A stretch of DNA of 64,000 nucleotides from Alphaproteobacteria bacterium (lineage in GTDB: Bacteria; Pseudomonadota; Alphaproteobacteria; UBA7887): the NCBI GenBank assembly GCA_965216755.1, contig CBDCGL010000011.1, positions 4,256,001 to 4,320,000 on the forward strand, in the 5' to 3' direction. Below, piece by piece: positions 6,191-44,070 of the stretch. The notes beneath the pieces were generated by a model. The model did not search any database and was not told where the DNA came from. It saw only the letters and a program-made list of their open reading frames with translations. Numbering within the stretch: position 1 is the first letter of the stretch; each line of letters begins with the position of its first letter. The position numbers and the translations under genes were made by a program.

Positions 6191-7192
6191 ATGAAACAGG
6201 TGATCAAGGCCGCCGCGAAAGCGGTCGACCGCGGTGTCGTTTCGGCGTCTTTGGCTGTCGCCAAGGAACGTCCAGCCTTGTTGAGCTTCACCTTTCACGG
6301 CTTGTTCGAGACACGCGATGAAGCGCGCGACGGGACGATCTATCCGCACCAAATGGTGACCATCGACGATTTGCACTTTTTCATTGGCCATTTCAAAAAC
6401 GCCGGCTATCGCTTCATCAGCCCTGCCGAGCTTCTCTCCGGGCTTGACGCCGATGGCCACTATGCGCTGATGACGTTTGACGATGGCTACGCCAACAATC
6501 TGCGCGCTCTGCCTGTGTTGCGGGAACACAATGCTCCGGCGACCTTTTTTGTGACGACGAATAACGTTGCGCGCAGCCGGTGCTTTTGGTGGGACGTGCA
6601 TTACCGCGAACGTACCGCCCAGGGCATGGGAAAAGGAGCCGTGATCGAAGAACAGGAGGCGTGGAAGCGGGCGCCGTTTAACGAGATCGAAAGTCGGACC
6701 CGGGAAGCTTTTGGCGACGGCGCGTTTGCGCCACGTGGCGAAACCGATCGACCCATGACCGAAGATGAACTTAAGGCGTTCGCGGCTGATCCTTTGGTGA
6801 CGATCGGCAACCACACGGCCGACCACGCGATCTTGACCATGTGTGATGCGGAGGCGCGTGACCGCCAGTTGCGCGATAGCCAGGCGTACTTCGGCCGTGC
6901 TTTGGGGTCTCCGCCGGACATCATTGCCTATCCGAATGGCAATTTTGACGACGCCGTTATTGCGGCGGCGCGCGCGGCGGGGCTCAAGCTTGGCATGATC
7001 GTCGGCCCACGAAAAACGCGGCTGCCGCTCGCCGACTCTGAAATGATGATGCTCGATCGTTACGTTATCGATCCCATAGAAGGTGGGCCGAGTCTCGAGC
7101 AGCAATGCCGCGCTTGTCGCAGCGACATCCAGATCCTTAACACTGTGCGCCGAGTGCGTCGGCTGCGCCGCGCGCATCAAGGCATGCAATAG
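6191..7192 (+). CDS. Polysaccharide deacetylase (CE4/NodB family)
   Basis: TFDDGYANN, IGNHTADH and AYPNG motifs. ATG 6191 preferred over the ORF-track start at 6014. Confidence 0.85.
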   Translation: MKQVIKAAAKAVDRGVVSASLAVAKERPALLSFTFHGLFETRDEARDGTIYPHQMVTIDDLHFFIGHFKNAGYRFISPAELLSGLDADGHYALMTFDDGYANNLRALPVLREHNAPATFFVTTNNVARSRCFWWDVHYRERTAQGMGKGAVIEEQEAWKRAPFNEIESRTREAFGDGAFAPRGETDRPMTEDELKAFAADPLVTIGNHTADHAILTMCDAEARDRQLRDSQAYFGRALGSPPDIIAYPNGNFDDAVIAAARAAGLKLGMIVGPRKTRLPLADSEMMMLDRYVIDPIEGGPSLEQQCRACRSDIQILNTVRRVRRLRRAHQGMQ

Positions 7193-7238
7193 TCGACGAT
7201 CGGGATAGCCAGACGATGATTGCGCGGTGGTTCGTGGG

Positions 7239-8735
7239 ATGACCCGCAAGGAAAGCGAATTTCGCGCGGTATGGCGACAAGGGCGCGTTTATGGACTGGG
7301 CAACGCGCTCAATCGAGTCGCAGCCCTCCTGCTGATTCCGGTTCTTCTCCATTCGCTGTCGGCCGAGGAATGGGGCGCCTACGCGCTGATCCTGATATTC
7401 AGTCAAGCGCTGTCCATGGGGGCGTCGGTGATCAACGACTCCATGGCACGTATCTATTACGACTATGAGGAAGAAACGAAACGTTGCCAGGTGGTCGGCA
7501 CGGCATTCGTTTTGTTCCTGATGGCCGCGGCGCTTCTGGGTGTTCTGGCTTACCCCTTGGCCATCGCCATAAATGGATTTCTGTTCGACCATGATCGCTA
7601 TTTCAACGCGGTGTTGTTGGCGAACTTCGGTGTCATTTTCGAGTTACTGCTGGGCATGTTGCTGATCTATGTGCGGTTGCGCCGCCGCCCGCTCATTTTT
7701 GTCTCGATCAGTCTTGCCCGGTCGCTTATTCAACTCAGTCTAAGCATCGTGTTGGTCGCCTATCTGGGTATGGGCGTCATGGGTGTGGTGATTGGGAATT
7801 TCGCCGCGATCACGCTGCTTTCGATTCCGGCGGCTGCGATGATGCTGCGGCATACCGGCCTTCATTACCGGCGACCGGTGGCGCGCGAGATGACCCGCTT
7901 GGCGGTACCGATGGTTCCCGCCTGGTTCGTGCGTAGCTCGTTCAATTTGATTGAGCGCACGATGCTCAATCAATTGACGACGACGGCGACGGTTGGCGTC
8001 TACGCGGTCGGTCGGCGACTGACGGAGCAATTCGACAATTTACTGACGCTGCCCTTCGCCCATGTCTGGGGCGTCCATTTGCTTGAAGTCGGCGATTCGG
8101 TGGAACGCGCGAAAGAGCTGAATCGGGTACTCAATTTGGTCATGTTCGTGCTGACCGGCGCGTCGCTTACATTGTCCCTGTTTTGCTTGGAGATTTTGCA
8201 GATCATCGCGGCGCCCGAATTTTGGGACGTGGCGCCGGTCATCCCGATCATGGCACTGACTGGTATTGTTGGTGTGCCGATCTATCATTTCGAGAGGTGT
8301 TTGCTTCAGAAAAAGCAGACAGTCTACATGCCGATCATCAACTGGAGCGTGGTCGCGTTCAGTATTGGCATATTCTTTATCATGATACCGATTCACCCAC
8401 TTTGGGGCACCGCGTGTGCCGGTCTGATGGTATTTCTTTTTAAGCTGTCACTGACGGTGTTTTTCGTCGCGCGGTGTTCCGACGTCCATAGGCTGTTTCC
8501 TTGGGGAGGCGTCGCGACCTATATCTTGTTGGCGATCATCACCTATGGCGTGTCGCTATGGCTGATCGGCGACACGGTCAGTCTGGCCGGGATTGCCGGA
8601 AAGCTTGCTTTGCTGGCGATCGGTGGCACGATCGCGTTCTACAGCCCGGCCTTCGATCGTGATGAACGGCGCGCGGCGATCGGCATGGCCAATGGCTTCG
8701 CCCAGCGGCTGGGTTTGAATTTCGGAGGACGGTGA
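7239..8735 (+). CDS. wzx: Wzx-type oligosaccharide flippase
   Basis: About 500 aa, many TM segments, N-terminal YGLGNALNRVAALLLIPV...LSAEEWG, internal VGVYAVG; polysaccharide-locus context. Confidence 0.85.
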   Translation: MTRKESEFRAVWRQGRVYGLGNALNRVAALLLIPVLLHSLSAEEWGAYALILIFSQALSMGASVINDSMARIYYDYEEETKRCQVVGTAFVLFLMAAALLGVLAYPLAIAINGFLFDHDRYFNAVLLANFGVIFELLLGMLLIYVRLRRRPLIFVSISLARSLIQLSLSIVLVAYLGMGVMGVVIGNFAAITLLSIPAAAMMLRHTGLHYRRPVAREMTRLAVPMVPAWFVRSSFNLIERTMLNQLTTTATVGVYAVGRRLTEQFDNLLTLPFAHVWGVHLLEVGDSVERAKELNRVLNLVMFVLTGASLTLSLFCLEILQIIAAPEFWDVAPVIPIMALTGIVGVPIYHFERCLLQKKQTVYMPIINWSVVAFSIGIFFIMIPIHPLWGTACAGLMVFLFKLSLTVFFVARCSDVHRLFPWGGVATYILLAIITYGVSLWLIGDTVSLAGIAGKLALLAIGGTIAFYSPAFDRDERRAAIGMANGFAQRLGLNFGGR

Positions 8736-8750
8736 AACCGCGCGCCAGGT

Positions 8751-16154: not shown

Positions 16155-18200
16155 TCACTTGATTTCGAAGCGTGTTTCCAAGATCGCCGGCGCCACGAGC
16201 TGACAGCGGCCACGCAGGGTTGTGGCCGGCTCGCGGTATCCTAGCGCTCCAGAGTACCAGCCCAATGGCGCCGATTCGTCGCCGCGCACGATGTCCCATT
16301 GCCAGTGACCATCGACCGTGATGGTCATCAGCGAGCCGGTATCCGCGTCGACCGCCGACCAGGTCGGATGATTGGCGCCGCCGGTGCCCGTGTCGCGCGC
16401 GGACAGCACAAGGTGTGGGGCAAAATGAAAGTGTAAGGCGCAGTCATGGGGCACCGTTGCGGCTTGGTTGCCTGGTACACAGTCGATTCGGTCGCGAACG
16501 ACCAAGCACCTCTGCTCGCTATCTATCTCTACCGTTCGGTCGTGGACAACGCCCAGAGCCATGTACCCGTCGTGGCTGCCGCGTGCCCATTGGCTGCCAT
16601 CGTCTTCGAGCGCCCATTCGCGCAGCCGGGCCTTGGCGTGACGCAGCCACAAAAACGGACCGCCGATCAACGACTGGTCGTGATCGTCGACCGTGAGCGT
16701 GTTGTGGGCGCGCGTGCCGCGGAAATAGGATCGCCAGACCGGGTCTGAATGGTAGGCGAAGGTGCCCGGGTCGACCAACCACCAGGCACCGTCCACGGCC
16801 AGGCACAGGCTAAGGGCGTCGGCGTGGCCATGGGCGGCGATCGACGGGTAGCCGAGGGGGCCAGCGTCAAACACGAGGTGAAACTTCGGATCGCCGAGCA
16901 CCGCATAGCCGCCCTCAGGAAAGATCCGCGGATATGTGACGTCGGCCGATGCCGACCCGCCATCGCGGTTGGCGCCTGCGGGGACCGCCATGCGATACCA
17001 GTACGCTTTTTCGCCAATTGCCCGCGCATCGTCAGGTGGGTCGTCGCCGAACACGGCGTCGACCGCTTCCAAGACTTGGCCGTACGGATCCGTCGGCCAA
17101 CGTGCATCGAACCGGGTGACGAAGCCGTCGTCGGCGTCGCCAATCTGCGGTGGCGTACCTCCAGGTGGGGCGATTGCGCGCAGGAATGCTGCCATTGCCA
17201 ATATGCGATTGCGGAACGCGGCCGAGAAGGGTCTCGCGCAGGATTCACCGACGATCCAGGCGACCAAGAAATACTCTAAGACCCACAGATGATAATACGC
17301 CGCTTGCTCTTTGTTGACGCCGTCGGCAAAGACTTGAGCCGCGGCTTCGCGTTCCAATTCGCGTTGCGCGCGCCGCGCCCAGCGCGCGCCCCAGGCACCC
17401 ATATCGAAGGTGCAGGTGGCTACCCAAATACCGGTTAGCTCGCCGATGAGGTGGTTGTTTGCCGATGAATGTCGAGACAAAAAGCGGCTGATAAAATGCG
17501 TTTGTTGGTAAATCGCCGTTCCAAAACGCTGTTGATTGCGCATCGCCGGAAATATGCCGTCGGTGCCGTCGCGAACCGCGATCAACGCTTGGATGAATGA
17601 CCAAGCAATCAGTCGCAATGCCGGTTCCAAAGCGCTGCACCAATGCACGCCGAGGCCATAGGGATTGGCCAGGCACCAGCCATCGATCTGTTCGGCGACC
17701 GCGTCGCGGTAACGGGAGTCACCGCTATGGGCATAGGCGGCGGCCAGCGGTATCAAATGCTGATGGCGGCCCAGCTCCCACAGCACCTTGATGTCGCCGA
17801 CCAGCCGGTCATCGCGATAGTTGATGGTCTTGCCAAAGCTCAGAGGCGCGCGCAGACCGGTTTTCGGATCGCGGTGCCAGTCTACCGGATGACCGACTTC
17901 AAGTGGCGCGTTGCCGAAAAAATCAATCCGCCCGGCAGCGATATCCGCGAGGCCCGGCGCATCAATTGTATAGGCGGCCAACCTCTTGGCCTGCCACCCG
18001 TTCGGCGGATCGAACATGGACTGGCCAGGTTGGACAGGTCGCGATGGTCGCGGTTGTCGTTCAAGCCCGACCATGGTTTGTTCCACGCGCTGATCAACGG
18101 CGCGCCACAGTCGGTGCACGACTTCGCCCGCGCTCATTGCGCGCAGGCGGTTCAATTTCCAAGAAAGTCCGCTCAACCGACCAGATACTGACGATGCCAT
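16155..18200 (-). CDS. Heparinase II/III-like protein
   Basis: DIKVLWELGRHQHL, SSANNHLIGE, EQAAYYH, AAHGHADALS, VDPGTFAY, AHNTLTVD. Start uncertain (18224/18200/18137). Confidence 0.85.
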   Translation of the reverse strand: MASSVSGRLSGLSWKLNRLRAMSAGEVVHRLWRAVDQRVEQTMVGLERQPRPSRPVQPGQSMFDPPNGWQAKRLAAYTIDAPGLADIAAGRIDFFGNAPLEVGHPVDWHRDPKTGLRAPLSFGKTINYRDDRLVGDIKVLWELGRHQHLIPLAAAYAHSGDSRYRDAVAEQIDGWCLANPYGLGVHWCSALEPALRLIAWSFIQALIAVRDGTDGIFPAMRNQQRFGTAIYQQTHFISRFLSRHSSANNHLIGELTGIWVATCTFDMGAWGARWARRAQRELEREAAAQVFADGVNKEQAAYYHLWVLEYFLVAWIVGESCARPFSAAFRNRILAMAAFLRAIAPPGGTPPQIGDADDGFVTRFDARWPTDPYGQVLEAVDAVFGDDPPDDARAIGEKAYWYRMAVPAGANRDGGSASADVTYPRIFPEGGYAVLGDPKFHLVFDAGPLGYPSIAAHGHADALSLCLAVDGAWWLVDPGTFAYHSDPVWRSYFRGTRAHNTLTVDDHDQSLIGGPFLWLRHAKARLREWALEDDGSQWARGSHDGYMALGVVHDRTVEIDSEQRCLVVRDRIDCVPGNQAATVPHDCALHFHFAPHLVLSARDTGTGGANHPTWSAVDADTGSLMTITVDGHWQWDIVRGDESAPLGWYSGALGYREPATTLRGRCQLVAPAILETRFEIK

Positions 18201-25381: not shown

Positions 25382-25388
25382 GGCTGAA

Positions 25389-25538: not shown

Positions 25539-25552
25539 TTTAGGCGGCTCCG

Positions 25553-27758: not shown

Positions 27759-30700
27759 ATGACCGCGAATGTCTTCGACTGTGTGATTCTCGGTGATGAA
27801 TCACTGCTCATCGGGTGCGGTGATATCTTGCGTGAACGCGGCCATCGGATCCGCGCGATTATGTCGGCCAATCCGCAAATCGCCACCTGGGCAAAAAGCA
27901 ACGATATAACGTGCGTGTCGGATTTAGAGAGCTTGCGCGCTTCGATGGCCGAGGGCGCGATCGACTATTTGTTCAGCATCACCTATTTGTCGATTGTTCC
28001 GACGGATCTCTTGGCGGCGGCGCGGCATGGCGCGATCAATTTTCACGATGGGCGCTTGCCGGACTATGCGGGCCTCAATACACCGGTTTGGGCGCTGCTC
28101 AATGACGAGCGAGATTACGGCATCACCTGGCACTTGATGGCCGAAAAAGTCGACCAAGGCGATATTTTGATGCGTGTCCCGGTGGCGATCCAGGACCACG
28201 ATACGGCCCTGAGTCTCAACACCAAATGTTACGAAGCGGCGCTGCAATCATTTCCCGTTCTTCTGGATGCGCTGGAGAGCGAGAACGTTGCGCGCAGCCC
28301 GCAGAATCCGAGCGCGATTCGCTACTTCGGCAAATACAAAAAGCCGGATGCGGCCTGCGCCATACGCTGGGATCAAGATGCGGCTGCGATCACACGTTTG
28401 GTGCGCGCCCTGGAATTTGGCGCGTATCGCAATCCGGTGGGCGCGGCCAAACTGTTGCTTGGCGACACGGCAGTTATCGTCCACGAGGCCGACAACGTGG
28501 GGACAGCGGCACAACACGCGGCCGGCGAGGTTGTTGGGATCAGCGAAGAGACAATCACCGTGGCTGCCGGACAGGGCGCCGTTGCGCTGCGCCGTCTCAG
28601 CCAATTGTCAGGGGCCAGTTGCACGATATCCGACATTGTCGCACATCATGACCTCAAGGTCGGTGATCGACTGACAGTGATTGACGACGCCAGCGCCCAA
28701 AGCCTGGGCGCGCGGCAGAGCGATGTCGCCAAGCACGAGGACTACTGGGTCCGACGTTTGGCGAACCTGGATGGGGTCAGATTGCCCGGACATGGGGGGG
28801 GCGCATCCGCACCGACTCAGCCAAGCATGCACGCCGAGCCGTTTGTCGTGCCCTCTGATGCCCAATCCTTGCTGGGCGGCGACCCGCTCGCGTTTATGGT
28901 CGCCTTGGGTGCGTTCGTGGCACGAATGGATGGCAAGACAAGCTTCGACGTTGCATACCGCGATGGCGCCCTGCGGGCATTGGTCCCGGTCGATGATCCG
29001 ATTTTTTCACGCTTCGTGCCACTGCGGTTTGAGATTGATTTGGCAACGCCGTTCGCCGACCAACGTGCGCAGCTGTCTGCGGCCATCCAAGAACTGACCA
29101 AACGCAAGACATTTCTGATTGATGCGAAGGCGCGGCACCCGGCGGTGGCGCAGGCGACGGCTAACGGCGCGCCGGTTTTGCCGGTCCGAATTAACGTCGG
29201 TGGCATAACCGAGCCAGCCAACGCGGGCGGCCTAACGATCGCAATTGATGACGCCGCGACAGAATGTATCTGGCACTACGATTCCGCTGCCGTCAGTGCG
29301 TCCGCCGTGCACGCGGCCCAAACGCGCTTCGCCGCTTTCTTGGAAAATCTGTCGCGCATGTCGACCGCGTCGCTCGCTGATGTGCCGATGTTGAGCGCGG
29401 ACGAACAGCAGACCATGCTGCGCGACTGGAACGACACCGTGCGCGATTATCCGCGCGACCGTTGCGTCCATCAGCTGTTTGCGCAACGCGCGGCGCAAAC
29501 GCCCGACGCGGTTGCCTTGGTGTTCGAAAATCAATCGCTCACCTATGGCGCGCTCAACGCACGGGCCAACCGAGTCGCGCACCAATTGCGTGATATGGGC
29601 ATTGGGCCCGACAAACTGGTCGGCGTCGCGGTGGAGCGCTCGATCGATTTGATGGTTGCTGTTTTGGGTGTCTTGAAGGCGGGCGGCGCCTATGTGCCGA
29701 TCGATCCGTCGTATCCGCACGAACGCGTTCGGCTCATGCTCGAGGATTCGAATGTGCCGGTCCTGCTCACGCAACGACATTTGATGGTGGATCTGCCGGA
29801 TCATGCGGGCCGGGTTTTGTGCGTTGACGCGGACGGCGTGCAAGCTGACGCGGCCGGCGACCATGATCCGGACGTTGCCGTTCAACCCGACAATCTCGCC
29901 TACGTCATTTACACGTCTGGTTCCACGGGACGACCCAAAGGGGTCATGGTCGAACATCGCAACGTGGTCAATTTCTTTGCCGGCATGGACGACTGCATTG
30001 CACACGATCCGCCTGGCGTGTGGTTGGCGGTGACCAGCCTATCGTTCGATATTTCGGTGTTGGAGCTGTTTTGGACCCTGGCGCGCGGCTTCAAGATTGT
30101 CCTCCACGGCGATACGCCGCAGCGTAAAGTGGCCGCGGCGACAAGCGGCGCGGCACGAAAGCGACCGGTGAACTTCAGCTTGTTTTATTTTGCCAGCGAT
30201 CAGCAGGGCCAGGGTTCAGAGCGGTATCGATTGCTAATGGATGGCGCCAAGTTTGCCGATGAGCATGGCTTTGAAGCGGTCTGGACCCCGGAGCGCCATT
30301 TCCACGATTTCGGCGGCTTGTATCCGAATCCGTCGGTGGCCGGTGCAGCCATCGCCGCGATCACCAAGAACGTTGGCATTCGGTCAGGCAGTTGTGTTTT
30401 GCCCTTGCACCATCCGATTCGTGTCGCCGAAGAATGGAGCCTGGTCGACAATCTGTCCGACGGCCGCGTCGGAATCGGCATTGCATCTGGTTGGCAACCT
30501 AATGATTTTGTCTTGCGTCCGCAAAATCATGCCAAGGCCAAGGACATCATGTTCCATTCCTTGGAACAAGTGCAGAGGCTGTGGGCCGGCGAAAGCGTCA
30601 CGTTTCCGGGGCCGAAAGGTGATGTCGATGTCGCGATAATGCCAAAGCCGGTCCAAGATTCGTTGCCGGTTTGGATCACCACCGCCGGAAATCCCGAGAC

Positions 30701-32450: not shown

Positions 32451-32465
32451 ACGCACAAACGACAG

Positions 32466-35400
32466 GTGAGGTTGCGGAGCGTGCGGGAAAATAGAGACCG
32501 GCTATCGCGTTTGTCGCGTGAAGAGCGGGCGCGCTTGGTTATGCGCCTCAAAAAACGATCGGCCGCGGATGAGCCTGATCATATCCAACCGGATCCCGAG
32601 AACCGCTACGCGCCGTTCCCGCTGACCGATTTGCAGCAAGCTTATTGGATTGGGCGTAGTGGCTCTTTCCAGATGGGCCAAGTCGCCAGTCACAGCTATT
32701 TGGAGGTTGAGGGCGAATACGATCTGCCGGCCTTGGAGGCGGCGCTGCAAAAGGTGATCGCCCGGCATGAGAGCTTGCGCACGATTGTTCAACCGAACGG
32801 TCAGCAGCGGGTTCTGGAAGAAACGCCGCTTTATAAAATCGAAACCACCGATGTTGGCGCTCTGACGCCGGACGCGGCGCAGGCCGCGATGGACGCGTTG
32901 CGCCGTCGTATGTCGCATCAGGTCCGGCCCAGCGACCAATGGCCGGTTTTCGAGATCCATGCCGCACTACTGGGCGGCCGGCGCGCACGTCTCTATGTCA
33001 GCCTCGACGCGCTTCTGATTGATGGCTGGAGTATCGCCGTGTTGTTCCGCGAGTGGGCGCAGGCGTACCGAGAGCCGGATAAGGCATTGCCGGACATCGA
33101 TCTGACGTTTCGCGACTATGTTCTGGCGGAACGTGCTTTGGAAGAGACGGCGAAGTTTGAACGTGACCAAGCTTATTGGTTGGCGCGCATCGACGATTTG
33201 CCCAATGGGCCGGATTTGCCACTGGCCAAGCCGCCGTCCGAATTGGCCGAGGCACGGTTTGTTCGACGTCACGCCCGCCTTGAGGCGGAACAATGGACCC
33301 AATTGCGAGCGCGGGCGAAGGCACATGGTCTGACGCCGACAGGGATTCTGCTGGCGGCTTATGCCGACGTGGTGGCGTTGTGGTCGCAGAACGAGCGGTT
33401 TTTGATCAACGTGCCGCAGTTTAATCGCGCCCCCTTGCACCCACATGTAAACGACGTCATCGGTGAGGCCGCGTCGTTCAGCGTTGTCGCCGTGGATATG
33501 ACCGGCAATGACGGATTTAGTGACCGCGCACAACGATTGCAGCGGCAAATGTGGGAAGACCTTGACCACAGCGGATTCAGCGGCGTCAAAGTCCTGCGCG
33601 AGGTCGCGCGGTCACGGGGCCAGACCTCGGGGTCATTGGCGCCGGTGATTTTTACCGCGGCGCCACAAGACGATGACGGCAAAGACGGCTACGCGACTTT
33701 GGTTGCACGCGAAATCGGTGAGGTGGTGTTTTCCGTCAACCAGACCTCTCAAGTTTGGATCGATAACCATATCTCCGAGCAAGATGGTGGCCTGATTTGC
33801 GATTGGGATTCGGTCGACGAGCTGTTCCCACCGAATCTGTCCGCGGACATGCTTGGCGTCTATTTCGATCTGCTGAACCGCTTGGCGCGCGACGACGCGG
33901 TGTGGGAGATGGATTGGCCAAGCATCGCTGCGACCTTGATGCCGGCTGATCAACGCGAGCGCCGCGACAGTGTGAATGACACCGCCCAGCCGGTGCCCGA
34001 TCACTTGATGCAGGACCTGTTCGCCGCCCAAGTCAGTGCACATGCGGATAAGCCAGTGGTGATCGCTCGCGACCGCACCTTGCGCTACGGCGAGCTTGAT
34101 CAATTGGCCAACCGGTGGGCGCGACGCTTGCGTGATATGGGTGTTGCACCGGGCGATCGCGTGGCGATTGTCATGGAAAAAGGCTGGGAGCAGTTTGTCG
34201 CGGCTTTCGCTGCGCTCAAAGCCGGTGGCGCGTATGTGCCGATCGATTCCGAGCAACCTGTCGAGCGACTGACCTATATGATCGAGAACTGTGGCGCGGC
34301 CTGCATTCTCAGTCAATCGTGGGTTGACGCACGACTGACTTGGCCGGACGGGGCCCGGATCCTGTTAGTCGACAAAGAGTCGGTCGATGATTGGGACGCA
34401 ACGGCCATAGATCCGGAACGGACGGCTGACGATCCCGCCTTTGTGATTTACACCTCGGGTTCGACCGGGATGCCGAAGGGCGTGGTGTTGAGCCATCGGG
34501 GCGTCGTTAACGCGTTACTGGCGACCAATCAGCGGTTCGATGTTGGGCCGGACGATGTTGGCTTCGCTATCGCGGCATTGCATCACGATCTTTCCATCTA
34601 TGACACGTTTGGATTGCCGGCGGCGGGGGGCACGGTCGTCATGCCTGACCCGACGGGACGGCGTGATCCGGCTCATTGGTCCGAGTTGATGGTGGCGCAC
34701 AACGTCACGGTGTGGAATTCGGTGCCGGCCATGATGGTGATGCTATTGGAATATGCCGATAGCCACGAGAACGCCATGCCGACCGAACTCAGGTTGTCGT
34801 TCTTGGGCGGCGATTGGGTACCCGTTGACGTGCCGCAGCGTATTGCGCGGCACGCCAAGAAATGTCTGTTGGTCACGACCGGCGGTCCGACCGAAACCAC
34901 CCTATGGAACATCTGGAATCCGATTGAGGCATTCGATCCCGATTGGACCAGCATTCCGTATGGCAAACCGATCGCCAATACACGCTATTACATCATGAAC
35001 GAGCATTTCGTTGAGCGGCCGGATTGGGTGGTCGGCGAAATGTATGTGGCTGGTGTTGGCGTCGCGCACGGCTATCTCGGCGATCCGAAACGCAGCGGCG
35101 AGAAATTCGTACTAAATGGGTGGACCGGTGAACGCTTGTGCCGCACTGGCGATTTGGGGCGCTACATGCCGGATGGCAATATTCAGTTCGTCGGGCGCGC
35201 GGACTTCCAAGTCAAGATCAACGGCCAAAGGATCGAGTTGGGAGAGATCGAGGCCGCGCTGGCCAAACATCCCGATATTTCAACAGCCGTGGTCATGGCG
35301 ATCGGACCGGCACAAAAGGCACGCCGCTTGGCCGGCTTTGTGGTTCCGCAAGAGGGTAAGACGGTTGTCAGCGACGACCTGCGGAACTACCTGATGGATA

Positions 35401-36686
35401 AGGTGCCGGACTATATGGTGCCGACCGCATTTGTTAGCCTTGACAGATTACCCTTGACCGCCAATGGCAAGGTCGACCGAAAAGCACTCAGCGCGCTGGA
35501 GACCGAGGTCGCAAAACCTGAGGCGGCGCGGTCCACGGGCGGCGCCTCGACCACGGCCAAAGTTGCCGCCTTGGTGGGGACCGTGATGGGCGACGACGCC
35601 ATCGATCCGGCGGCCAACCTTCTGTCGCTGGGCGCGAATTCCATCAATATGGTGCAGATCGGCAACGAAATCGAAAAGGCATTCGGATTTCGGCCGCGCA
35701 TGGACCAGATTTTTCGCTTGCAATCGATCAACGCCATCGCCGCGTTTTGCGATCGCGAGCTGGGCGGGGCCGACAGTGAAGAGACCAAGGATACCGGCGA
35801 AATCGGTCTGACCAACGAAATTCGAGAAATCATTGCATCCTTCGAGAACATCATCGATCCGTGCGAGCGCGACGCGTTCAAGAACTCGCAACCGGGCATT
35901 CGCCGCGATGACGCCGACCGGGATTTCGTCCAGCTCGTTGCGCCCGAGATAACCGACGAACTCCGCGCCTACTACGCCAATCATCGCAGCAATCGTCGAT
36001 TTGGGCTGCAGCCTATCCCGCTCGAGCAGTTTAGTTCGTTCTTGGCGTGCATGTATCCGATCGAGCTCAATGGCCGGCCGAAATATTTGTTTGCTTCGCC
36101 GGGCGGGCTCTACCCGACCCAGGCCTATGTCCATGTTAAGCCGGCGCGGATCGAGGGTATCCCCGGCGGCAGCTACTACTATCATCCGTCGAAGCATCGA
36201 CTCGTTTCACTCAAAAAGGGCGCGGTGGTCGATCGCGGCATTCATGTCCCGTTTGTCAACACACCGGTGTATGACGAGGCCGCGTTTTCGATTTTCTTGG
36301 TCGTCGATCTGTCGGCAATTGCGCCGTCCTATGGCGAACGATCGATCTTCTTCGCGACCTTGGAGGCGGGCATCATGTCGGTTGTGTTGGAAGAAGCTGC
36401 CCGCGATGCCAAGTTGGGCATTTGCCAAATGGGCGGTGTCGACTTTGATCAGATCCGCGATTTGTTCGATCTACAACCGCATCACCTCTATATGCACTCG
36501 CTGCTCGGCGGACCGCTGTTCGATGGGCCCGATAGCCAACCGGTGATTCGCACGTCGCGAGATGAGGAAAACCGCACGCGGATTGCCAATCTCTTGGAAC
36601 GTATTCGCCAGCTATCGCCGGATGAAGCGCGGGTCATGGTCGGCGTACTCAAGAATGAGGTCGATCGGGGCTCGGAGAATGACTGA
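32466..36686 (+). CDS. NRPS module: heterocyclisation (Cy) - A - PCP - oxidase (SagB/nitroreductase-like)
   Basis: Cy: FPLTDLQQAYWIGR, DALLIDGWS (DxxxxDxxS), PVIFT, NQTSQVWID. A: YTSGSTGMPKG, WNSVPA. PCP: LGANS. Ox: RSNRRF, ASPGGLYP, YYYHP, LEAG. Confidence 0.92.
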   Translation: MRLRSVRENRDRLSRLSREERARLVMRLKKRSAADEPDHIQPDPENRYAPFPLTDLQQAYWIGRSGSFQMGQVASHSYLEVEGEYDLPALEAALQKVIARHESLRTIVQPNGQQRVLEETPLYKIETTDVGALTPDAAQAAMDALRRRMSHQVRPSDQWPVFEIHAALLGGRRARLYVSLDALLIDGWSIAVLFREWAQAYREPDKALPDIDLTFRDYVLAERALEETAKFERDQAYWLARIDDLPNGPDLPLAKPPSELAEARFVRRHARLEAEQWTQLRARAKAHGLTPTGILLAAYADVVALWSQNERFLINVPQFNRAPLHPHVNDVIGEAASFSVVAVDMTGNDGFSDRAQRLQRQMWEDLDHSGFSGVKVLREVARSRGQTSGSLAPVIFTAAPQDDDGKDGYATLVAREIGEVVFSVNQTSQVWIDNHISEQDGGLICDWDSVDELFPPNLSADMLGVYFDLLNRLARDDAVWEMDWPSIAATLMPADQRERRDSVNDTAQPVPDHLMQDLFAAQVSAHADKPVVIARDRTLRYGELDQLANRWARRLRDMGVAPGDRVAIVMEKGWEQFVAAFAALKAGGAYVPIDSEQPVERLTYMIENCGAACILSQSWVDARLTWPDGARILLVDKESVDDWDATAIDPERTADDPAFVIYTSGSTGMPKGVVLSHRGVVNALLATNQRFDVGPDDVGFAIAALHHDLSIYDTFGLPAAGGTVVMPDPTGRRDPAHWSELMVAHNVTVWNSVPAMMVMLLEYADSHENAMPTELRLSFLGGDWVPVDVPQRIARHAKKCLLVTTGGPTETTLWNIWNPIEAFDPDWTSIPYGKPIANTRYYIMNEHFVERPDWVVGEMYVAGVGVAHGYLGDPKRSGEKFVLNGWTGERLCRTGDLGRYMPDGNIQFVGRADFQVKINGQRIELGEIEAALAKHPDISTAVVMAIGPAQKARRLAGFVVPQEGKTVVSDDLRNYLMDKVPDYMVPTAFVSLDRLPLTANGKVDRKALSALETEVAKPEAARSTGGASTTAKVAALVGTVMGDDAIDPAANLLSLGANSINMVQIGNEIEKAFGFRPRMDQIFRLQSINAIAAFCDRELGGADSEETKDTGEIGLTNEIREIIASFENIIDPCERDAFKNSQPGIRRDDADRDFVQLVAPEITDELRAYYANHRSNRRFGLQPIPLEQFSSFLACMYPIELNGRPKYLFASPGGLYPTQAYVHVKPARIEGIPGGSYYYHPSKHRLVSLKKGAVVDRGIHVPFVNTPVYDEAAFSIFLVVDLSAIAPSYGERSIFFATLEAGIMSVVLEEAARDAKLGICQMGGVDFDQIRDLFDLQPHHLYMHSLLGGPLFDGPDSQPVIRTSRDEENRTRIANLLERIRQLSPDEARVMVGVLKNEVDRGSEND

Positions 36687-39600
36687 TCTGTATCAAGGCA
36701 CGGACGGGTTGAGCCCAGAGCAGAGCGAACTTTTCGCGCTGATGCTGGATTATGAAGGACTCGACCCGCAGGAGCTGCCAATCGCGGCGCGTGGTGACGA
36801 CGCGCCCAACGCGCCACTGTCCCATACCCAAGAACGCTTTTGGTTTCTGAACCAAATGGCGCCGGACAGCCCGGCCTATAACGAGCCGATCGCCATGCGT
36901 TTGCAAGGTGCGTTGGATCGCGATGCGCTCACTCAGGCATTGACGGCCCTTTTACGACGGCATTCGGCGCTGCGCGTACGATTTGTGACCGATGGCGCAT
37001 CACTCGCGCAGACCATTGAACCGGTGCCCGACAACCCGCTGACTATCGAAGATCTTCGGGATGTCGCGGCAGATAATCGGCTGGCTCAGGCACAGGCGCG
37101 GGCGGCGGCGGTGACCGTTGCGCCGATGGACTTTTCCGTTGGGCCTCTTTACCGATTTCGCCTGTTTCAACTGGACGACCAAGATCATTTGCTCCTGATC
37201 GTTTTGCATCACGGCATTGCCGATGGCTTCTCGCTGCGTCTGCTGATGCGCGAATTGTCGGCCCTGTACGCCGCATTTTGCGCAGGTCAGCCGTCGCCGC
37301 TGCCCGACGTGCCGCTGCACTACACTGACTATGCCGCGTGGGAGCGTGCCGCGGCGGGCGAAACGCGGAGGCGCGATAGTCTGTCCTATTGGCGGCGCGT
37401 GCTGAGCGACGCGCCGGACCTGCTGGCATTGCCCACGGATCACCCGCGGCAATCAGCTTTCACGTTTCATGGTGCGACCGAACGTTTTGCGGTCGATAAC
37501 GAGCGGTCGACTGCCTTGCGTGATCTCAGTGCTGAACAAGGCGTTACGCTATTTATGACCATGCTGGCGGCGTTTCAGGCGCTGCTGCACCGTTATGCGC
37601 GTCAGGACATGATTTTGGTGGGCACGCCCGTATCCAGTCGTGAACGTCCTGAATTGGAAACCGTTGTTGGGTCGTTTGCCAACAATCTTGTTCTGCACGC
37701 CGACTGTGCTGACAATCCGCGGTTTGTCGATCTGCTGGCGCAGGTTTCCGACACCTCTTTGGAAGCTTTCTCGCATCAGGCCGTTCCGTTTGAAAAAGTT
37801 GTCGAGGCCGTTGATCCGAAGCGCGACGCCGGGTATAACCCATTGTTTCAGGTCGCTTTTTTACTTCACCAAAACACATTGCGTGATAATTTAGAGCTCT
37901 CTCATCTACGTGTCTCAGCGGTGCCGATCGAAACCGGCGCGACACGCTTCGATATCGACCTGATGCTTGAGGATACGCGCGCCGGGTTGGTGGGCACCCT
38001 GCATTACAACACTGACCTGTTCGAGCCGGCGACGATTGCGCGTTTGATAGGCCACTATCAGACCCTCTTGCAGGCGGTGGTCGATGATCCGCAGCAGCGT
38101 TTGTCGGATATCGCCCTGCTTGAAGCCGATGAGCGGGGGCTGCAGCTCGAGACTTGGAACAACACGGCGCAGGACTACGACCGCACCGCGACCCTTCACG
38201 GATTGATCGCGCGCCAGGCGGACCGCACGCCCGAGGCCGTCGCGGTTGTTGATGACGCCACGTCACTGACTTATGGCGAACTTGAGGCTCGCGCCAACGC
38301 GTTGGCGGCGCATCTGTGTCGGCATGGGGCCGAACCCGGCAAGATCGTTGGCGTCATGCTTGAGCGGCGGACTGATCTTTTGGTCGGTTTACTGGGCGTT
38401 TTGAAATCTGGCGCGGCCTATTTGCCGCTTGATCCCGGATTTCCGAAACGGCGCCTGTCGATGATGCTGGAAGACAGCGCCGCGCCTTTGATTGTCAGCG
38501 AGCCGTCGCTGGCTGCGGATGTCCCGGATTCGGCGGCGACAGTGGTGGATTTGTGCGACATCGCCACGTCCGGCGCCGCACCGCCTGACTCAGCGACGGC
38601 AGGCGCGGACGACTTGGCCTATGTGATCTTCACCTCGGGCTCCACCGGTCGGCCCAAGGGCGTGCAGATTAGCCATCGCAACGTGGTCAATTTCTTGACG
38701 AGCATGGCGAAAGCACCAGGCCTGAACGCCGACGATCGTCTATTGGCGGTGACGACCACGTCGTTCGACATATCGGTGCTTGAACTGTTTTTGCCCCTGA
38801 CTGTTGGGGCGACGGTCGTCTTGGCAGACCGAGACACCACCGCCGATGGCGACGCGTTGGCGGAGTTCGTCATGGAGTCCGGGGCCACGGTCATGCAGGC
38901 GACGCCGGCCACCTGGCAGCTTTTGATCGCTGCCGGATGGAACGGAGACATGGGCCTGAAGGCGCTGTGTGGTGGTGAGGCGTTGACCCGCGATTTGGCA
39001 CGCAGCCTGAAATCCCGTGTCGGTTGTCTGTGGAACATGTATGGGCCGACAGAGACGACGATTTGGTCGACATGCGCCGAAATCACCGATTCGGACGATA
39101 TCACGGTCGGGCGGCCAATCGCGAACACACAGATATACGTTTTAGACACCCATCGGCAACCTGCACCCATCGGTGTTCCCGGCGAGTTGTTTATTGGCGG
39201 CGATGGCGTGGCGCGCGGCTATCTCAATCGGCCAGACCTCACCGCTGAACGCTTTGTACCGGATCCGTTTCGGGCCGGCGATGCGTGCATGTACAATACC
39301 GGTGACCTGGCGCGGCTTCACGACGACGGCCGAATCGAACATCTGGGCCGGGTTGACAGCCAAGTCAAAGTACGCGGATTCCGCATTGAGTTGGGTGAGA
39401 TTGAGTCGGCCCTGTCAGAACATGACGGCCTCGCGCAAGCGGCTGTCGCGGTACGACACGCCAGCCCCAATGATGCGCGATTGATCGCGTATACCGTCAA
39501 TGCGGTCGCTGACCAACCGCCCACGGTTGGCGATCTTAGAAAACACCTCAGACAACGACTGCCGGACTATATGATCCCGCAGAAATTCGTTGAATTGGAC

Positions 39601-40026
39601 CGGCTGCCGCTAACGGCGAACAACAAAGTCGATCGTTTAGCTTTGCCGAATCCGTTCGAGGATGTCGCCGCCGTCGAAGACGATTATGTGCCGCCGCGGA
39701 CTCCGGCCGAAAAGCTGGTGGCGGGCATATGGCAGGATGTGTTGGGTGGTACGCGTGTTGGCGCGAATGATAATTTCTTCGAGGTCGGTGGTCACTCGTT
39801 GCTCGCTATGCAGGTCATTGCACGGATTCGGCAAGAAACCGGGCAGAAACTCTCTCCACGTGCTATGATATTGAATTCGCTGGAAAGAATCGCGGCCGAT
39901 CTCGGTCCGATCGGTGTTGTGACAAGTTCTGTCGCCGGCCCGTCCGAAGCCGAGACGGTGAACGATGATTCGGCGAATAGCTCTTTGCTAAAGCGCGTCA
40001 AAAGTTCGCTCTTTGGGCCGCAGTGA
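36679..40026 (+). CDS. NRPS terminal module C - A (Gly-like) - PCP, no thioesterase
   Basis: C: HHGIADG. A: FTSGSTGRPKG, SFDISVLE, MQATP, NMYGPTETTIWS. PCP: FFEVGGHSL, then only a short tail. ATG 36679 overlaps the previous stop. Confidence 0.92.
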   Translation: MTDLYQGTDGLSPEQSELFALMLDYEGLDPQELPIAARGDDAPNAPLSHTQERFWFLNQMAPDSPAYNEPIAMRLQGALDRDALTQALTALLRRHSALRVRFVTDGASLAQTIEPVPDNPLTIEDLRDVAADNRLAQAQARAAAVTVAPMDFSVGPLYRFRLFQLDDQDHLLLIVLHHGIADGFSLRLLMRELSALYAAFCAGQPSPLPDVPLHYTDYAAWERAAAGETRRRDSLSYWRRVLSDAPDLLALPTDHPRQSAFTFHGATERFAVDNERSTALRDLSAEQGVTLFMTMLAAFQALLHRYARQDMILVGTPVSSRERPELETVVGSFANNLVLHADCADNPRFVDLLAQVSDTSLEAFSHQAVPFEKVVEAVDPKRDAGYNPLFQVAFLLHQNTLRDNLELSHLRVSAVPIETGATRFDIDLMLEDTRAGLVGTLHYNTDLFEPATIARLIGHYQTLLQAVVDDPQQRLSDIALLEADERGLQLETWNNTAQDYDRTATLHGLIARQADRTPEAVAVVDDATSLTYGELEARANALAAHLCRHGAEPGKIVGVMLERRTDLLVGLLGVLKSGAAYLPLDPGFPKRRLSMMLEDSAAPLIVSEPSLAADVPDSAATVVDLCDIATSGAAPPDSATAGADDLAYVIFTSGSTGRPKGVQISHRNVVNFLTSMAKAPGLNADDRLLAVTTTSFDISVLELFLPLTVGATVVLADRDTTADGDALAEFVMESGATVMQATPATWQLLIAAGWNGDMGLKALCGGEALTRDLARSLKSRVGCLWNMYGPTETTIWSTCAEITDSDDITVGRPIANTQIYVLDTHRQPAPIGVPGELFIGGDGVARGYLNRPDLTAERFVPDPFRAGDACMYNTGDLARLHDDGRIEHLGRVDSQVKVRGFRIELGEIESALSEHDGLAQAAVAVRHASPNDARLIAYTVNAVADQPPTVGDLRKHLRQRLPDYMIPQKFVELDRLPLTANNKVDRLALPNPFEDVAAVEDDYVPPRTPAEKLVAGIWQDVLGGTRVGANDNFFEVGGHSLLAMQVIARIRQETGQKLSPRAMILNSLERIAADLGPIGVVTSSVAGPSEAETVNDDSANSSLLKRVKSSLFGPQ

Positions 40027-40085: not shown

Positions 40086-40883
40086 ATGATGCCGCAATAT
40101 TTTGGTGCTGAGAACGAACGGCTTTTTGGCGTTTATCAAGAGCCCACGCATGGCACAGACCATGACCATGGCGTGGTGCTGTGTTATCCCCTATGGCAGG
40201 AATATGTGCGGTCCCATCGCGCCTATCAGCGCTTGGCGGTTATGCTCGCGCGCCAGGGACACCACGTTTTCCGATTCGACTATTTTGGCTCCGGTGATTC
40301 GTCCGGATCCAGCGACGGCCTCACGATAGCCGCGTGCCTCGATAACATCGCCACGGCGATCGACGAGCTCAAGGACGTCGCGGGCGTCAGCCGCGTGTCA
40401 TTGGTCGGGCTACGGTTTGGCGCCACGCTGGCGGCGCTTGTCGGCGGCCACCGCGTTCCCTGCCACAGACTGGTGCTTTGGGATCCGGTGGTGGTCGGCG
40501 CGGATTATATGAATGGACTGCATGGCTTGCGCGACAAGGTGATGACGGCGTGCAGCTGGCGGCGCCGGCGGCCAAACGGTCTTGCCAGTATTGGGGCGCA
40601 TCAGCTCTTGGGATTCCCGGTCCCCGAGCCCGTCGCCGCCAATGTTTCGGCCGCCGATCTATTGTCGGTTGAAAAATTCCCGGCGCGCCGCGCCCTTGTG
40701 GTCGGTTCATCGGACAAGCCCAGCTACAAAACGCTGGTCGATCACATGGAGCGCCGTGGTACCAAGACGTCCTATCAAGTGGTCGAGGATGACGACGATT
40801 GGGACGAATTTTCCAAATACGATTTTATCCTCGTACCGCCAAACGCCCTGTCGGCGATCACGGCGTACCTTGCCGCGGGATAA
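40086..40883 (+). CDS. Alpha/beta-hydrolase-fold protein lacking the nucleophile (resembles exosortase-A-associated hydrolase 2)
   Basis: FRFDYFGSGDS; nucleophile elbow reads GLRFG; LVLWDPVV. Confidence 0.75.
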   Translation: MMPQYFGAENERLFGVYQEPTHGTDHDHGVVLCYPLWQEYVRSHRAYQRLAVMLARQGHHVFRFDYFGSGDSSGSSDGLTIAACLDNIATAIDELKDVAGVSRVSLVGLRFGATLAALVGGHRVPCHRLVLWDPVVVGADYMNGLHGLRDKVMTACSWRRRRPNGLASIGAHQLLGFPVPEPVAANVSAADLLSVEKFPARRALVVGSSDKPSYKTLVDHMERRGTKTSYQVVEDDDDWDEFSKYDFILVPPNALSAITAYLAAG

Positions 40884-40887
40884 AGCA

Positions 40888-41760
40888 ATGGAACGTGCGT
40901 TTGCCTTTGGCCCGCGATCGGCCTTGATCGGTACACTGACCGAGGCTGTTGACACGCCACTATCCGACCACCAGCCGGGTGTCATCCTGATCAATGCCGG
41001 GTTGGTTCATCGCATCGGTCCCGGCCGCCTGTACGTGGAAATCGCCCGTCGCCTGGCCGCACGGGGATTCCCGGCGTTCCGTTTCGACCAATCGGGCATC
41101 GGCGACAGCATGGCCCGGCGCGACGATGTCGCGTTTGAAAAACGTGCGCAGGAAGAAATCGTCGCGGCGATGGATTTGATGGTGGCGCAGGGTCAATGCC
41201 AGACTTTCGTGCTGATGGGGATTTGCTCTGGCGCCGACAATGCCCATCAGGTTGCGCTATCGGATCCGCGGGTTGTTGGCGCGGTTTATTTGGATGGTCC
41301 AGCTTATCGAACCGTGAAGTTCCTGGTGCGCCACTACGGCGTCCGGCTATTTCGACCACGCAGCTGGGCCGGACTTGTCGCGCGTCTGTTGGCCCGGATA
41401 TCGCGAACCGCCGGTGAACAACAGGAACCGACATATGTGCGCGAACTGCCGCCGCGTGAGCAATTCGGTCGTGAGTTATACAATTTGGCCGAACGCGGCA
41501 TGTCGCTGCTGCTGATCTTCACCGGTGGTTATCAACGTTACTACAATTATGAGCACCAGTTCGCCGATGTATTCGCACCATTGGCTGCGAACGCCGGTTT
41601 GCAGAACATCTTTCTGTCGCACTGCGACCATACGTTCGGGTTGGTCGAAGACCGTGCCGCCGTTATCGATATTATCGCGGATTGGATGTTGAACGCGTTC
41701 GGCGCGACCAATGACCGCCCGGTCGCTGAGACACTGCGCCAAGCGTCCGGTCAGGTCTGA
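40888..41760 (+). CDS. Alpha/beta-hydrolase-fold protein with Cys at the elbow (resembles exosortase-A-associated hydrolase 1)
   Basis: NAGLVHRIGPGR, FRFDQSGIGDS, GICSG, C-terminal DHTF. ATG 40888 lies 4 nt after the previous stop. Confidence 0.78.
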   Translation: MERAFAFGPRSALIGTLTEAVDTPLSDHQPGVILINAGLVHRIGPGRLYVEIARRLAARGFPAFRFDQSGIGDSMARRDDVAFEKRAQEEIVAAMDLMVAQGQCQTFVLMGICSGADNAHQVALSDPRVVGAVYLDGPAYRTVKFLVRHYGVRLFRPRSWAGLVARLLARISRTAGEQQEPTYVRELPPREQFGRELYNLAERGMSLLLIFTGGYQRYYNYEHQFADVFAPLAANAGLQNIFLSHCDHTFGLVEDRAAVIDIIADWMLNAFGATNDRPVAETLRQASGQV

Positions 41761-41790
41761 CAGGATTCACCTTGCGCTAGCGGGCGCGGG

Positions 41791-42549: not shown

Positions 42550-42561
42550 TGGCCTGACGCC

Positions 42562-44031
42562 CTAGTAGGCGTTTTCGTCGCCAAGCAGAACGAACAGTGT
42601 CTTGGCGATGATGACCAAATCCAGCCACACCGACCAATTGTCGATGTAGTAGAGGTCATATTCGACACGCTTTTGGATTTTTTCGATGGTGTCCGTTTCG
42701 CCACGCCAACCGTTAACTTGGGCCCAGCCCGTTATGCCGGGTTTCACGCGGTGTCGGGCGGCATAACGGTCGACGACTTCCTCAAATAGCCGCCCTTCGG
42801 CTTTGGTCGCCAGGGCGTGGGGACGCGGCCCAACAATCGACATGTCGCCACGTAAGACGTTTAGCAGTTGTGGAAACTCGTCCAGGCTGGTCTTGCGCAA
42901 CAAGGCGCCCACGCGCGTGACTCGCGGGTCACCGCGCGTGGTTTGGATCTCGCAGTTGGCGTCGTTCATATCGACGCGCATGGTGCGGAACTTCCACACC
43001 TCGATCAGCTTGTTGTTAAAGCCGTAACGACGTTGTTTGAAGAATATCGGACCCGGTGAATCGAGTTTCACGGCCAAGGCGATGATTGCCAGAGCGGGCG
43101 CAAAAAACAGTAAGGCAAGAAGCGCCAGAGTCCGGTCTTCGATCGCCTTCAGCACATGCGACCATCCGGATATCGGTCGGTCGAACAGATGCAGCATTGG
43201 CAGGCCGGCAACCTGCGTGAATGAACGATCGGCGAAATGCAGGCCGGCCAAATCCGGCGCCAGTCGGATCCGCACCGGCGTCAACGCCAAACGCTGCACC
43301 AAGGTCCGCAACCGGCTCTCGGCGCTCCACGGCACGGCGATAAACACCTGGTCGACGAGATTGCTGCGAATCAAGCGAATCAAGTGATCCGTATCGCCAA
43401 GGACCGGAAGGCCGTCGGCCGGCGGTACGATCCGGTTACGCCGATCATCGATAAAGCCGACAAGCTGGGTGCAGACATCGCCATACTGTTGCAAATGTTG
43501 CGACAAGCGCTGGCCATTCTCACCGGCGCCGACGATGACCGTGCGGCTGGCGAATCGGCCCTCTCGGGCCAGCGTTGCAACCCAATGGGCCAGCGCCCCG
43601 CGGCCGAAGCCCAGAACGATGAAGACGCTCACCATCCAGCCAACCGACCAGACACGCGAATACATGTCCGAAATCTTGACCGCGAAAGCGGTCGCCAACA
43701 GCGCGCCGCAAATCACGACCCACGCCGTCAAAACCCGGTCAAAACGTGGCGTGCGCGAGAAGATGTATTCCTCCGCATACACCCCAAACCATTGGAACAG
43801 GACGGCTGCCATGGTCATCGCGATCAACACCGCGACGACATATTCGCTCTCCACACCGGACGCCTCTGGATAAACACCATACGCGAAATAGATGCCCGCA
43901 CCGAGCAGCCCGATGACGCTCAGGTCAAAGAGCCGAAGGCATCCGCTGACGAACGCCGTGGAAATTGGCTGAACACGACGACCCGCCAGCGCTGGGTCGA
44001 GCGGTGTCTCAAATAGATTCGATTGCGTCAT
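42562..44031 (-). CDS. wcaJ: Undecaprenyl-phosphate glucose phosphotransferase (priming glycosyltransferase, WcaJ type)
   Basis: N-terminal TMs, [70 protein letters not shown]. Start at 44031 chosen from the promoter position. Confidence 0.93.
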
Positions 44032-44054
44032 TGCTTGTTCCATGGGAGTGGGAA

Positions 44055-44070
44055 AGCAAGGGGCATGCCA
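44055..44070 (-). promoter_or_regulatory. Sigma-54 (-24/-12) promoter of the wcaJ-PPTase unit
   Basis: Minus strand reads TGGCATG-CCCC-TTGCT, with exact GG-N10-GC spacing, about 25 nt upstream of ATG 44031. Confidence 0.7.

Follow-up and report, generated by a model that had tools for sequence, protein, structure and literature searches.

An azole-forming peptide synthetase line within a glycan locus of an alphaproteobacterium, followed by a cysteine/arginine hydrolase-fold pair as its candidate off-loader

Teichoic acids are D-alanylated by the Dlt pathway, through DltA, DltC, DltB and DltD. In the aminocoumarins CloN7 and CouN7 move an acyl group from a carrier to a sugar, and CmaE and SyrC are cysteine transacylases. 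In exosortase A systems two hydrolase families, TIGR03100 and TIGR03101, are accompanied by the ligase TIGR03098, an acyl carrier protein (ACP) and the decarboxylase TIGR03099. A TIGR03100-annotated protein, Bcam1334, is encoded in the bep exopolysaccharide cluster of Burkholderia cenocepacia, whose role has been proven genetically; it was guessed to be a quality-control hydrolase, and is not among the characterised mutants in the available text of that report (PMC3584217). That a peptide can be N-linked to a sugar of a surface glycan is known from the type B flagellin of Clostridioides difficile (PMC5207246). We have analyzed a window of 64,000 nucleotides from an alphaproteobacterium of the UBA7887 lineage (GenBank assembly GCA_965216755.1, contig CBDCGL010000011.1, positions 4,256,001 to 4,320,000), whose genome, G000, is 99.8% complete. 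The window carries a three-gene nonribosomal peptide synthetase (NRPS) line of the order F-A(Gly)[monooxygenase]-T, Cy-A-T-Ox, C-A(Gly)-T (F, formyltransferase; T, carrier; Ox, FMN oxidase), situated between wcaJ with a phosphopantetheinyl transferase (PPTase) gene on one side and glycan genes on the other. Directly behind it are two genes of the alpha/beta hydrolase fold, hyd2 and hyd1.

27759..32450, plus strand: NRPS1, starter, with formyltransferase, truncated C-like spacer, A domain for Gly (code DILQFGMIW) with embedded luciferase-like monooxygenase, and T
32466..36686, plus strand (start codon uncertain): NRPS2, putative azole-forming module, with Cy, A (code DLYNFGTLW), T and FMN oxidase
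36679..40026, plus strand: NRPS3, with C (HHGIADG), A for Gly (code DILQLGMIW), T and a tail of ~45 residues; its start overlaps the NRPS2 stop
40086..40883, plus strand: hyd2, predicted alpha/beta-fold pseudoenzyme with Arg110 at the nucleophile elbow, TIGR03101-like below cut-off
40888..41760, plus strand: hyd1, alpha/beta hydrolase with Cys113-Asp136-His248, TIGR03100-like below cut-off, candidate transacylase

A preliminary description of this locus, made from the letters and the open reading frames (ORFs), had reported that the last module ends at a carrier, and this is confirmed for NRPS3: neither a thioesterase (TE) nor a reductase follows the final T, and the thioesterase family PF00975 has four matches genome-wide, none of them in the window. 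That description missed the hyd2/hyd1 pair, as it did the luciferase-like monooxygenase, a carbamoyltransferase cassette and a heparinase II/III-like gene. The gap between NRPS3 and hyd2 is 59 nt, and that between hyd2 and hyd1 is 4 nt. The two proteins are paralogs (profile probability 99%), with nucleophile elbows G-L-R-F-G in hyd2 and G-I-C-S-G in hyd1; where an NRPS thioesterase has its serine nucleophile, the one has Arg and the other Cys. These residues are well conserved in sets of sequences picked by similarity, from which fragments shorter than 200 profile columns were left out: in hyd1 the Cys is found in 224/224, the His in 223/224 and Asp136 in 196/224, while the Arg of hyd2 is kept in 80 of 83 sequences.

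The pair shares with the exosortase A hydrolases the hyd2-hyd1 order, the Arg and Cys elbows, the position after a carrier and the setting in a glycan locus. It differs from them in scoring far below both cut-offs (hyd1 81 against 168 for TIGR03100, hyd2 68 against 203 for TIGR03101; the true members in locus L100 score 336 and 241), in its separate branch of the hyd1 tree, and in having a three-module NRPS as loader instead of a ligase and an ACP. No acyl-CoA ligase, ACP or decarboxylase of the exosortase A set is present among the locus genes, and the exosortase itself (PF09721) was not found in the host genome. The predicted model of hyd1 (pLDDT 88) has the usual alpha/beta hydrolase fold, and no solved structure is close to it. 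The matches listed from fold searches were all generic esterases or thioesterases (best Z 22, TM at most 0.62), and many alpha/beta hydrolases tie at Z 18-22. From the Atlas came no clusters other than those named hydrolase or exosortase hydrolase 2. A natural hyd2-hyd1 fusion of the amino acid:carrier-ligase subfamily was also folded (pTM 0.81 from 8 sequences); this model is weak, concerns another subfamily and was not counted.

Relatives were examined in two sets: the best 80 of 562 metagenome loci, fetched with a hyd1 alignment, and the best 80 of 324 genome loci carrying the starter monooxygenase. Twenty of the 80 hyd1 loci have no upstream DNA, and the gene-order counts rest on the other 60. 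In 59 of these, hyd2 is directly upstream of hyd1, either as a free gene (44 loci) or fused to the C-terminus of a synthase (15 loci); the remaining one has a carrier gene in this position. The free hyd2 genes mostly come after a carrier or synthase gene (30 of 44), with nothing further in 9 cases and another gene in 5. The fusions of hyd2 occupy the position that is normal for a TE. Line ends in the 80 starter loci comprise 38 with a TE in cis, 6 with A-T followed by hyd2 and hyd1, 17 with the starter alone and 19 that are cut off, under a classification rule that misfiled L049, L050 and L059; none of the TE-ending lines among these 80 is directly followed by the hyd pair. Among 29 A domains standing last before hyd2 (three are near-copies), 15 carry a Gly-type code, as does that of the window, which fits a shared linker residue.

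Three unrelated loading systems precede the pair: NRPS/polyketide synthase lines; a ligase, an ACP and a decarboxylase, in exosortase-A glycan loci; and an ACP, a dehydrogenase, an amino acid:carrier ligase and a GH2 protein, where the pair is one fused protein. In a quickly built tree of 107 hyd1 domains, from which short fragments and 8 loci that were duplicates or overlapped had been dropped, each of the three uses lies on one side of a branch, with support of 92, 100 and 98, and the hyd1 of the window groups with the synthase-linked domains. The locus holds up as a coherent unit and is one member of a widespread class: carrier lines with a hydrolase-fold pair of the Cys/Arg type at their end. 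We consider it highly probable that the pair unloads the NRPS line. The operon of the third type, ACP - acyl-CoA dehydrogenase - amino acid:carrier ligase - (DUF1839 - GH2) - fused hyd2-hyd1, is seen in L214, L215, L047, L057, L063 and L192-L194, and the fused protein is a candidate downstream enzyme for the aaRS-like carrier ligases.

Unloading could also mean transfer to another carrier. CmaE and SyrC, which we take to be cysteine carrier-to-carrier enzymes, are the model for hyd1 as a shuttle handing the chain over to a different line, for instance a C-A-T, radical SAM and hexapeptide-T cassette 370 kb away in the host genome. The Cys nucleophile of hyd1 and the want of a TE in the distant cassette would suit such a role, and the radical SAM and hexapeptide-T genes of that cassette recur beside starter modules or hyd lines in L049, L059 and L137. 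However, hyd2 is fused after the last carrier in 15 loci, mostly with no further module called downstream of hyd1, and neither CmaE nor SyrC is among the listed fold matches of hyd1, where so many alpha/beta hydrolases are tied; a shuttle is very improbable. The pair is like CloN7/CouN7 and CmaE/SyrC in that these are, as we presume, alpha/beta-fold enzymes that move acyl groups from carriers; it differs from them since they are single proteins that act on small molecules or carriers, without a dead Arg partner. The distant cassette named above, the second TE-less one of the host genome, consists of C-A-T, a radical SAM protein and a hexapeptide acyltransferase fused to a carrier, and is located at L095:11952-17232 (G000:C11 ~3.922-3.927 Mb).

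The preliminary description had taken the missing TE as grounds for transfer to a sugar. That argument fails: there is a candidate off-loader beside NRPS3, and a missing TE is no evidence for sugar transfer because TE-bearing lines also sit in glycan loci, at least as often (12 of 38 TE-bearing starter lines, compared with 1 of 6 hyd-ending lines within 10 kb, or 2 of 6 once L042 is extended). Its idea of a peptide-decorated glycan gains support from elsewhere, namely from comparative linkage and from the position of the PPTase gene 12 nt behind wcaJ, the acceptor being one that we infer. Linkage was scored with the markers GT4, GT2, WcaJ, Wzx, Wzy_C, Wza, Wzc, Wzz and dehydrogenase, for hyd1 in the 28 loci whose non-synthase DNA amounts to 5 kb or more; expected values are from random stretches of one genome, that of the host. 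A core glycan gene is present in 11 of these 28 hyd1 loci (expected 1.2), and two or more in 6 (expected 0.3). The corresponding numbers for the starter loci are 22 of 66 (expected 3.3) and 14 of 66 (expected 1.2). This 6- to 9-fold enrichment extends across several phyla; judged by record title, the glycan-linked loci come from Pseudomonadota, Bacteroidota, Actinomycetota, Myxococcota and Cyanobacteria. The TIGR03100-annotated gene of the bep cluster also fits an association with glycans. Linkage to glycan genes exceeds expectation without being a fixed feature of these loci.

A sugar of the neighbouring pathway, small or protein-linked glycans included, is the probable acceptor. For the narrower reading, the best single one, in which hyd1/hyd2 transacylates the peptide onto a sugar acceptor that is a polymer repeat unit of that pathway, we judge the chances to be even. 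The pair might instead act in trans as a release enzyme of two parts, setting a small molecule free by hydrolysis, aminolysis or cyclisation, in which case the glycan neighbours would stem from variable envelope islands or co-regulation. Some 60-65% of the homologous loci are without glycan genes in the available flank, hyd-ending lines in Gemmatimonadota and Nitrosomonas have none, and the structural neighbours of hyd1 include the thioesterase DcsB and esterases. Free release is nevertheless rather unlikely given the enrichment across phyla, and given that the same pair serves one-residue carrier systems in glycan loci, where freeing the acid would be futile. Further, no exporter or resistance gene was matched among the scanned ORFs of the locus, and its PPTase gene is coupled to wcaJ.

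Several points weigh against transfer to a polymer of this locus. No core glycan gene lies in the available flank of 17 of the 28 hyd1 and 44 of the 66 starter loci; the preliminary description had named homologous sets mostly without polysaccharide genes as what would refute its reading, and the roughly two thirds of loci without such a gene in part match this. Some links are hidden because flanks are short, as in L042, which has no glycan gene within 10 kb and wcaJ, wza and wzc just beyond; the extended flanks of L015 and L053 still have none. The glycan markers were partly chosen from the tested loci themselves, the background is a single genome, and relatives in the linkage counts are not independent (L132, L133 and L135; seven Sneathiella loci). 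The share of TE-bearing starter lines in glycan loci, given above, tells in the same direction. The fold of the hyd1 model gives no demonstration of transfer chemistry. The locus contains no sugar aminotransferase and neither wza nor wzc, the nearest wza/wzc-like genes being 24-30 kb upstream, beyond unrelated genes. The published repeat unit of Bep, as given in the available text, has no acyl group, after extraction in 0.3 M NaOH (PMC7084887); such an extraction would strip esters from Bep.

The closest parallel to the azole line is in L064, from the cyanobacterium Xenococcus, the one further Cy-bearing locus among the 80. It has the same monooxygenase starter and Cy-A-T-Ox in tandem, and the line is directly followed by an ABC transporter gene and several GT4/GT2 genes, with WecG and Wzc upstream. 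It is an independent case of such azole chemistry within a glycan cluster, although its line ends in C-T-TE without the hyd pair, a point against transacylation by the pair. Searches with the T-Ox part of NRPS2 gave 1 other match in 401 genomes of the phylum (its line is followed by a type II TE), 2 besides the genome of L064 in 251 genomes of the cyanobacterial class, 0 in 301 genomes of the Ramlibacter family and 21 distant records in plasmids. The exact NRPS trio with the hyd pair was found in none of the genome and plasmid sets searched. What sets this locus apart is the predicted cargo of oxidised formyl-Gly, azole and Gly linker, which occurs with the hyd pair in no other searched locus. 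In L083 and L085 (Anabaena, Aulosira) the formyl-Gly/monooxygenase module stands alone in exopolysaccharide loci with PglD-type, DegT, ATP-grasp, WcaJ and Wzc genes; neither a TE nor the hyd pair is in the available flank. These loci are candidates for a second route from starter module to amino sugar.

The product of the line can be sketched as formyl-(oxidised Gly)-azole-Gly. The earlier proposal, formyl-Gly followed by a thiazole or oxazole and Gly, omitted the monooxygenase acting on formyl-Gly, and an oxazole is likelier than a thiazole. The NRPS1 formyltransferase carries the N-x-H motif and is nearer ArnA (1e-19) than LgrA (1e-10); action on a sugar amine was set aside, the domain being fused ahead of the Gly A-T. 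The truncated C-like spacer has no Pfam match. The luciferase-like monooxygenase (TIGR04020, 496 against 244) spans residues 806-1157, and the A domain is split around it. MtaG and MelG, which we take to be the corresponding proteins of myxothiazol and melithiazol, also have such a monooxygenase spliced into a Gly A domain; their modules are terminal, with C and TE, whereas that of NRPS1 is a starter behind a formyltransferase and two modules follow. By analogy with MtaG, presumably a model for hydroxylation of Gly at C-alpha, the embedded enzyme probably hydroxylates this carbon, and the N-terminal cap may be a carbinolamide or a product derived from one. The NRPS1 code is within one residue of DILQLGMIWK, the code given for Gly domains with a monooxygenase in PMC12283262.

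NRPS2 resembles known azole modules in its Cy domain, which is closest to EpoB (3e-96), and in its oxidase, which is closest to BmdC (1e-35; BmdB/BmdC, bacillamide) and is sited after T as in BlmIII. The Cy domain has the DxxxxD, Thr and Asp motifs, presumably in their usual roles. Equivalents of BmdC Tyr260, Arg146, Ser147, Arg149, Asn236 and Gly294 are kept in the oxidase, with His in place of Arg145 (residues as named in PMC8795117). Unlike Cys-specific azole modules, NRPS2 has an A code, read by motif anchoring as are the others, that departs from the Cys code in 4 of its 10 positions: F299, G301 and T322 stand where Cys domains have L/M, S and L. The match is 6/10 to the Cys code DLYNLSLIWK and 7/10 to DMFNFGVLWK, which is listed among Thr-group codes in PMC12283262. 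The nearest full-length relatives (~55% identity) carry D[LM][YF]NFG[TV]LW codes, while the 47 of 120 homologs that bear Cys codes, DLYN[LM]S[LM]IW, are the more distant ones. As the code leans toward Ser/Thr, the ring is more likely an oxazole than a thiazole, with Cys possible.

The other genes of the locus are as follows.

6119..7192, plus strand (start from codon model): polysaccharide deacetylase (CE4), PF01522 1e-24, TFDDG motif
7239..8735, plus strand: Wzx-type flippase, PF13440, 32 bits against a cut-off of 23, ~12 predicted transmembrane (TM) helices
8751..10694, minus strand: AsnB-type amidotransferase 1, PF00733, TIGR01536
10969..12075, plus strand: GT4 glycosyltransferase, PF00534
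12048..13262, minus strand: GT4 glycosyltransferase, PF00534, PF13439
13394..14614, minus strand: GT4 glycosyltransferase, PF13692, PF00534
14595..15923, minus strand: nucleotide-sugar dehydrogenase (uronic acid precursor), PF03721/PF00984/PF03720, TIGR03026 411 against 190
16155..18017, minus strand: heparinase II/III-like protein, PF07940, PF16889
18173..20065, minus strand: AsnB-type amidotransferase 2, PF00733, TIGR01536
20122..21132, minus strand: membrane-anchored SGNH protein, PF13472 below cut-off, GDS and DGH motifs, one TM helix
21471..23018, plus strand: Wzy_C-domain membrane protein (polymerase or O-ligase), PF04932 65 against 32, ~10 TM helices
23022..24140, minus strand: membrane-anchored SGNH protein, PF13472, GDS motif, N-terminal TM helix
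24941..25381, plus strand: SxtJ-like small membrane protein, PF19588
25389..25538, plus strand: DUF5989 small membrane protein, PF19451 7e-28
25553..27388, plus strand: O-carbamoyltransferase (CmcH/NodU family), PF02543, PF16861
41791..42549, minus strand: PPTase, PF17837, PF01648
42562..44043, minus strand: WcaJ-type priming glycosylphosphotransferase, TIGR03023 509 against a cut-off of 411

The list of ORFs and the family scans bear out the arrangement first described, three NRPS genes between wcaJ and the wzx, GT4, asnB, deacetylase and SGNH genes, and likewise its negative part: no exporter, resistance gene or TonB receptor was matched among the ORFs scanned in 6191-44070. The priming glycosyltransferase, further glycosyltransferases and Wzx flippase of a Wzx/Wzy pathway are all present, the family score of wzx being weak yet above its cut-off. 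The PPTase gene is on the same strand as wcaJ. The deacetylase, for which no TM or signal helix is predicted, could unmask an amine acceptor. The PF04932 family spans both polymerases and ligases, and the sole NCBIfam match of the Wzy_C-domain protein is to the O-glycosylation ligase model TIGR03097, at 60 against 188; the 'wzy-like' gene may thus be a ligase instead of a polymerase. This match below cut-off, the absence of wza and wzc from the locus and the presence of only three GT4 genes would be in keeping with a small glycoconjugate, or a protein- or lipid-linked oligosaccharide, in which a short undecaprenyl-PP (Und-PP) glycan bears the peptide and is joined by the PF04932 protein to a protein, to lipid A or to the peptide itself. 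Set against these, three wza and several wzc-like genes elsewhere in the host genome could act in trans, several homologous loci carry wza/wzc (L204, L208), and the nearly complete genome yielded no exosortase; such a product seems improbable.

Transfer onto a repeat unit would then proceed in the following manner. The PPTase would prime the three carriers. NRPS1 would load and N-formylate Gly, which the embedded flavin monooxygenase would oxidise, probably at C-alpha; NRPS2 would condense a hydroxy amino acid (Ser or Thr, with Cys possible), cyclodehydrate it and oxidise it to an azole, and NRPS3 would append the terminal Gly. The hyd2 protein, predicted to be catalytically dead, would dock to the last carrier and partner hyd1, whose Cys113 would accept the acyl chain and hand it on to a sugar acceptor in the cytoplasm, at one of its hydroxyls or amines; this acceptor would be either an Und-PP-linked repeat unit or a nucleotide sugar. 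Wzx would then flip the product outward, and a surface glycan with a formamido-azole-glycyl group would be the outcome. The scheme is like the Dlt pathway in that a carrier-bound acyl group would be destined for an envelope polymer. It is unlike it in having a multi-module, formylated and heterocyclic cargo, carriers in cis and, as the candidate enzyme, a soluble Cys transacylase, so that transfer is predicted in the cytoplasm; MBOAT (DltB-type) had no match among the locus ORFs scanned. The C. difficile peptidylamido-glycan is made with carbamoyl-phosphate-synthetase-like and cyclodeaminase-like proteins (PMC5207246). An NRPS origin for that glycan was considered and dropped, NRPS being mentioned in neither PMC5207246 nor PMC5207245 in the main text available. 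A Collimonas paper (PMC8313283), as far as its available text goes, concerns unlinked loci and was set aside. The literature, mainly open-access, yielded no study of the hyd pair, the starter family or an NRPS-decorated polysaccharide.

More broadly, and more tentatively, many phyla may use a transacylase in two parts, Cys and Arg, as an all-purpose adaptor for unloading carriers onto surface glycans, whether the carrier bears a single residue, a polyketide-peptide or, as in this locus, a formylated azole peptide. The chances of this are a little short of even. A large number of orphan TE-less NRPS clusters would then make polysaccharide substituents, in this case an aromatic and possibly metal-binding heterocycle. 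The pair offers a testable function for two long-unassigned families, the TIGR03100/03101-like proteins, and a release route for widespread NRPS lines without thioesterase. If a glycan is the acceptor, natural-product screens of culture extracts would miss such products, and alkaline polysaccharide preparations would remove ester-linked ones. An azole on a surface glycan could change metal binding, hydrophobicity, or recognition by phage or predators, and the pair would serve as a tool for attaching peptides to sugars.

Some minor observations concern the surroundings. The sxtJ-like, DUF5989 and carbamoyltransferase genes (24941-27388) together with their SGNH neighbours resemble a separate glycan O-carbamoylation cassette; carbamoyltransferase and sxtJ-like genes are likewise found beside hyd1 in L126 and beside the starter in L052. 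GC3 is alike and genome-typical in the NRPS and glycan genes and lends no support to a horizontal insertion of the NRPS alone. Promoter and terminator scans of the sequence equalled the shuffled background (8 against 7.9 and 23 against 23.7). There are six WcaJ-like priming transferase loci in G000:C11 and only three Wza-type exporters, and export proteins may be shared between the priming loci. The nearest wza/wzc cluster includes an HNH domain on a Wzc-like protein (L199:10788-11915; G000:C11 4232788-4233915). At the left edge of the window (2-1411; also L102:15771-16499) a GH3-family gene, OlsH-like below cut-off, adjoins a penicillin-amidase gene. An ordinary SUF Fe-S operon (regulator, sufB, C, D, S, U, T, A) occupies 50040-56742 of the window, and its sufB and sufC are low in GC.

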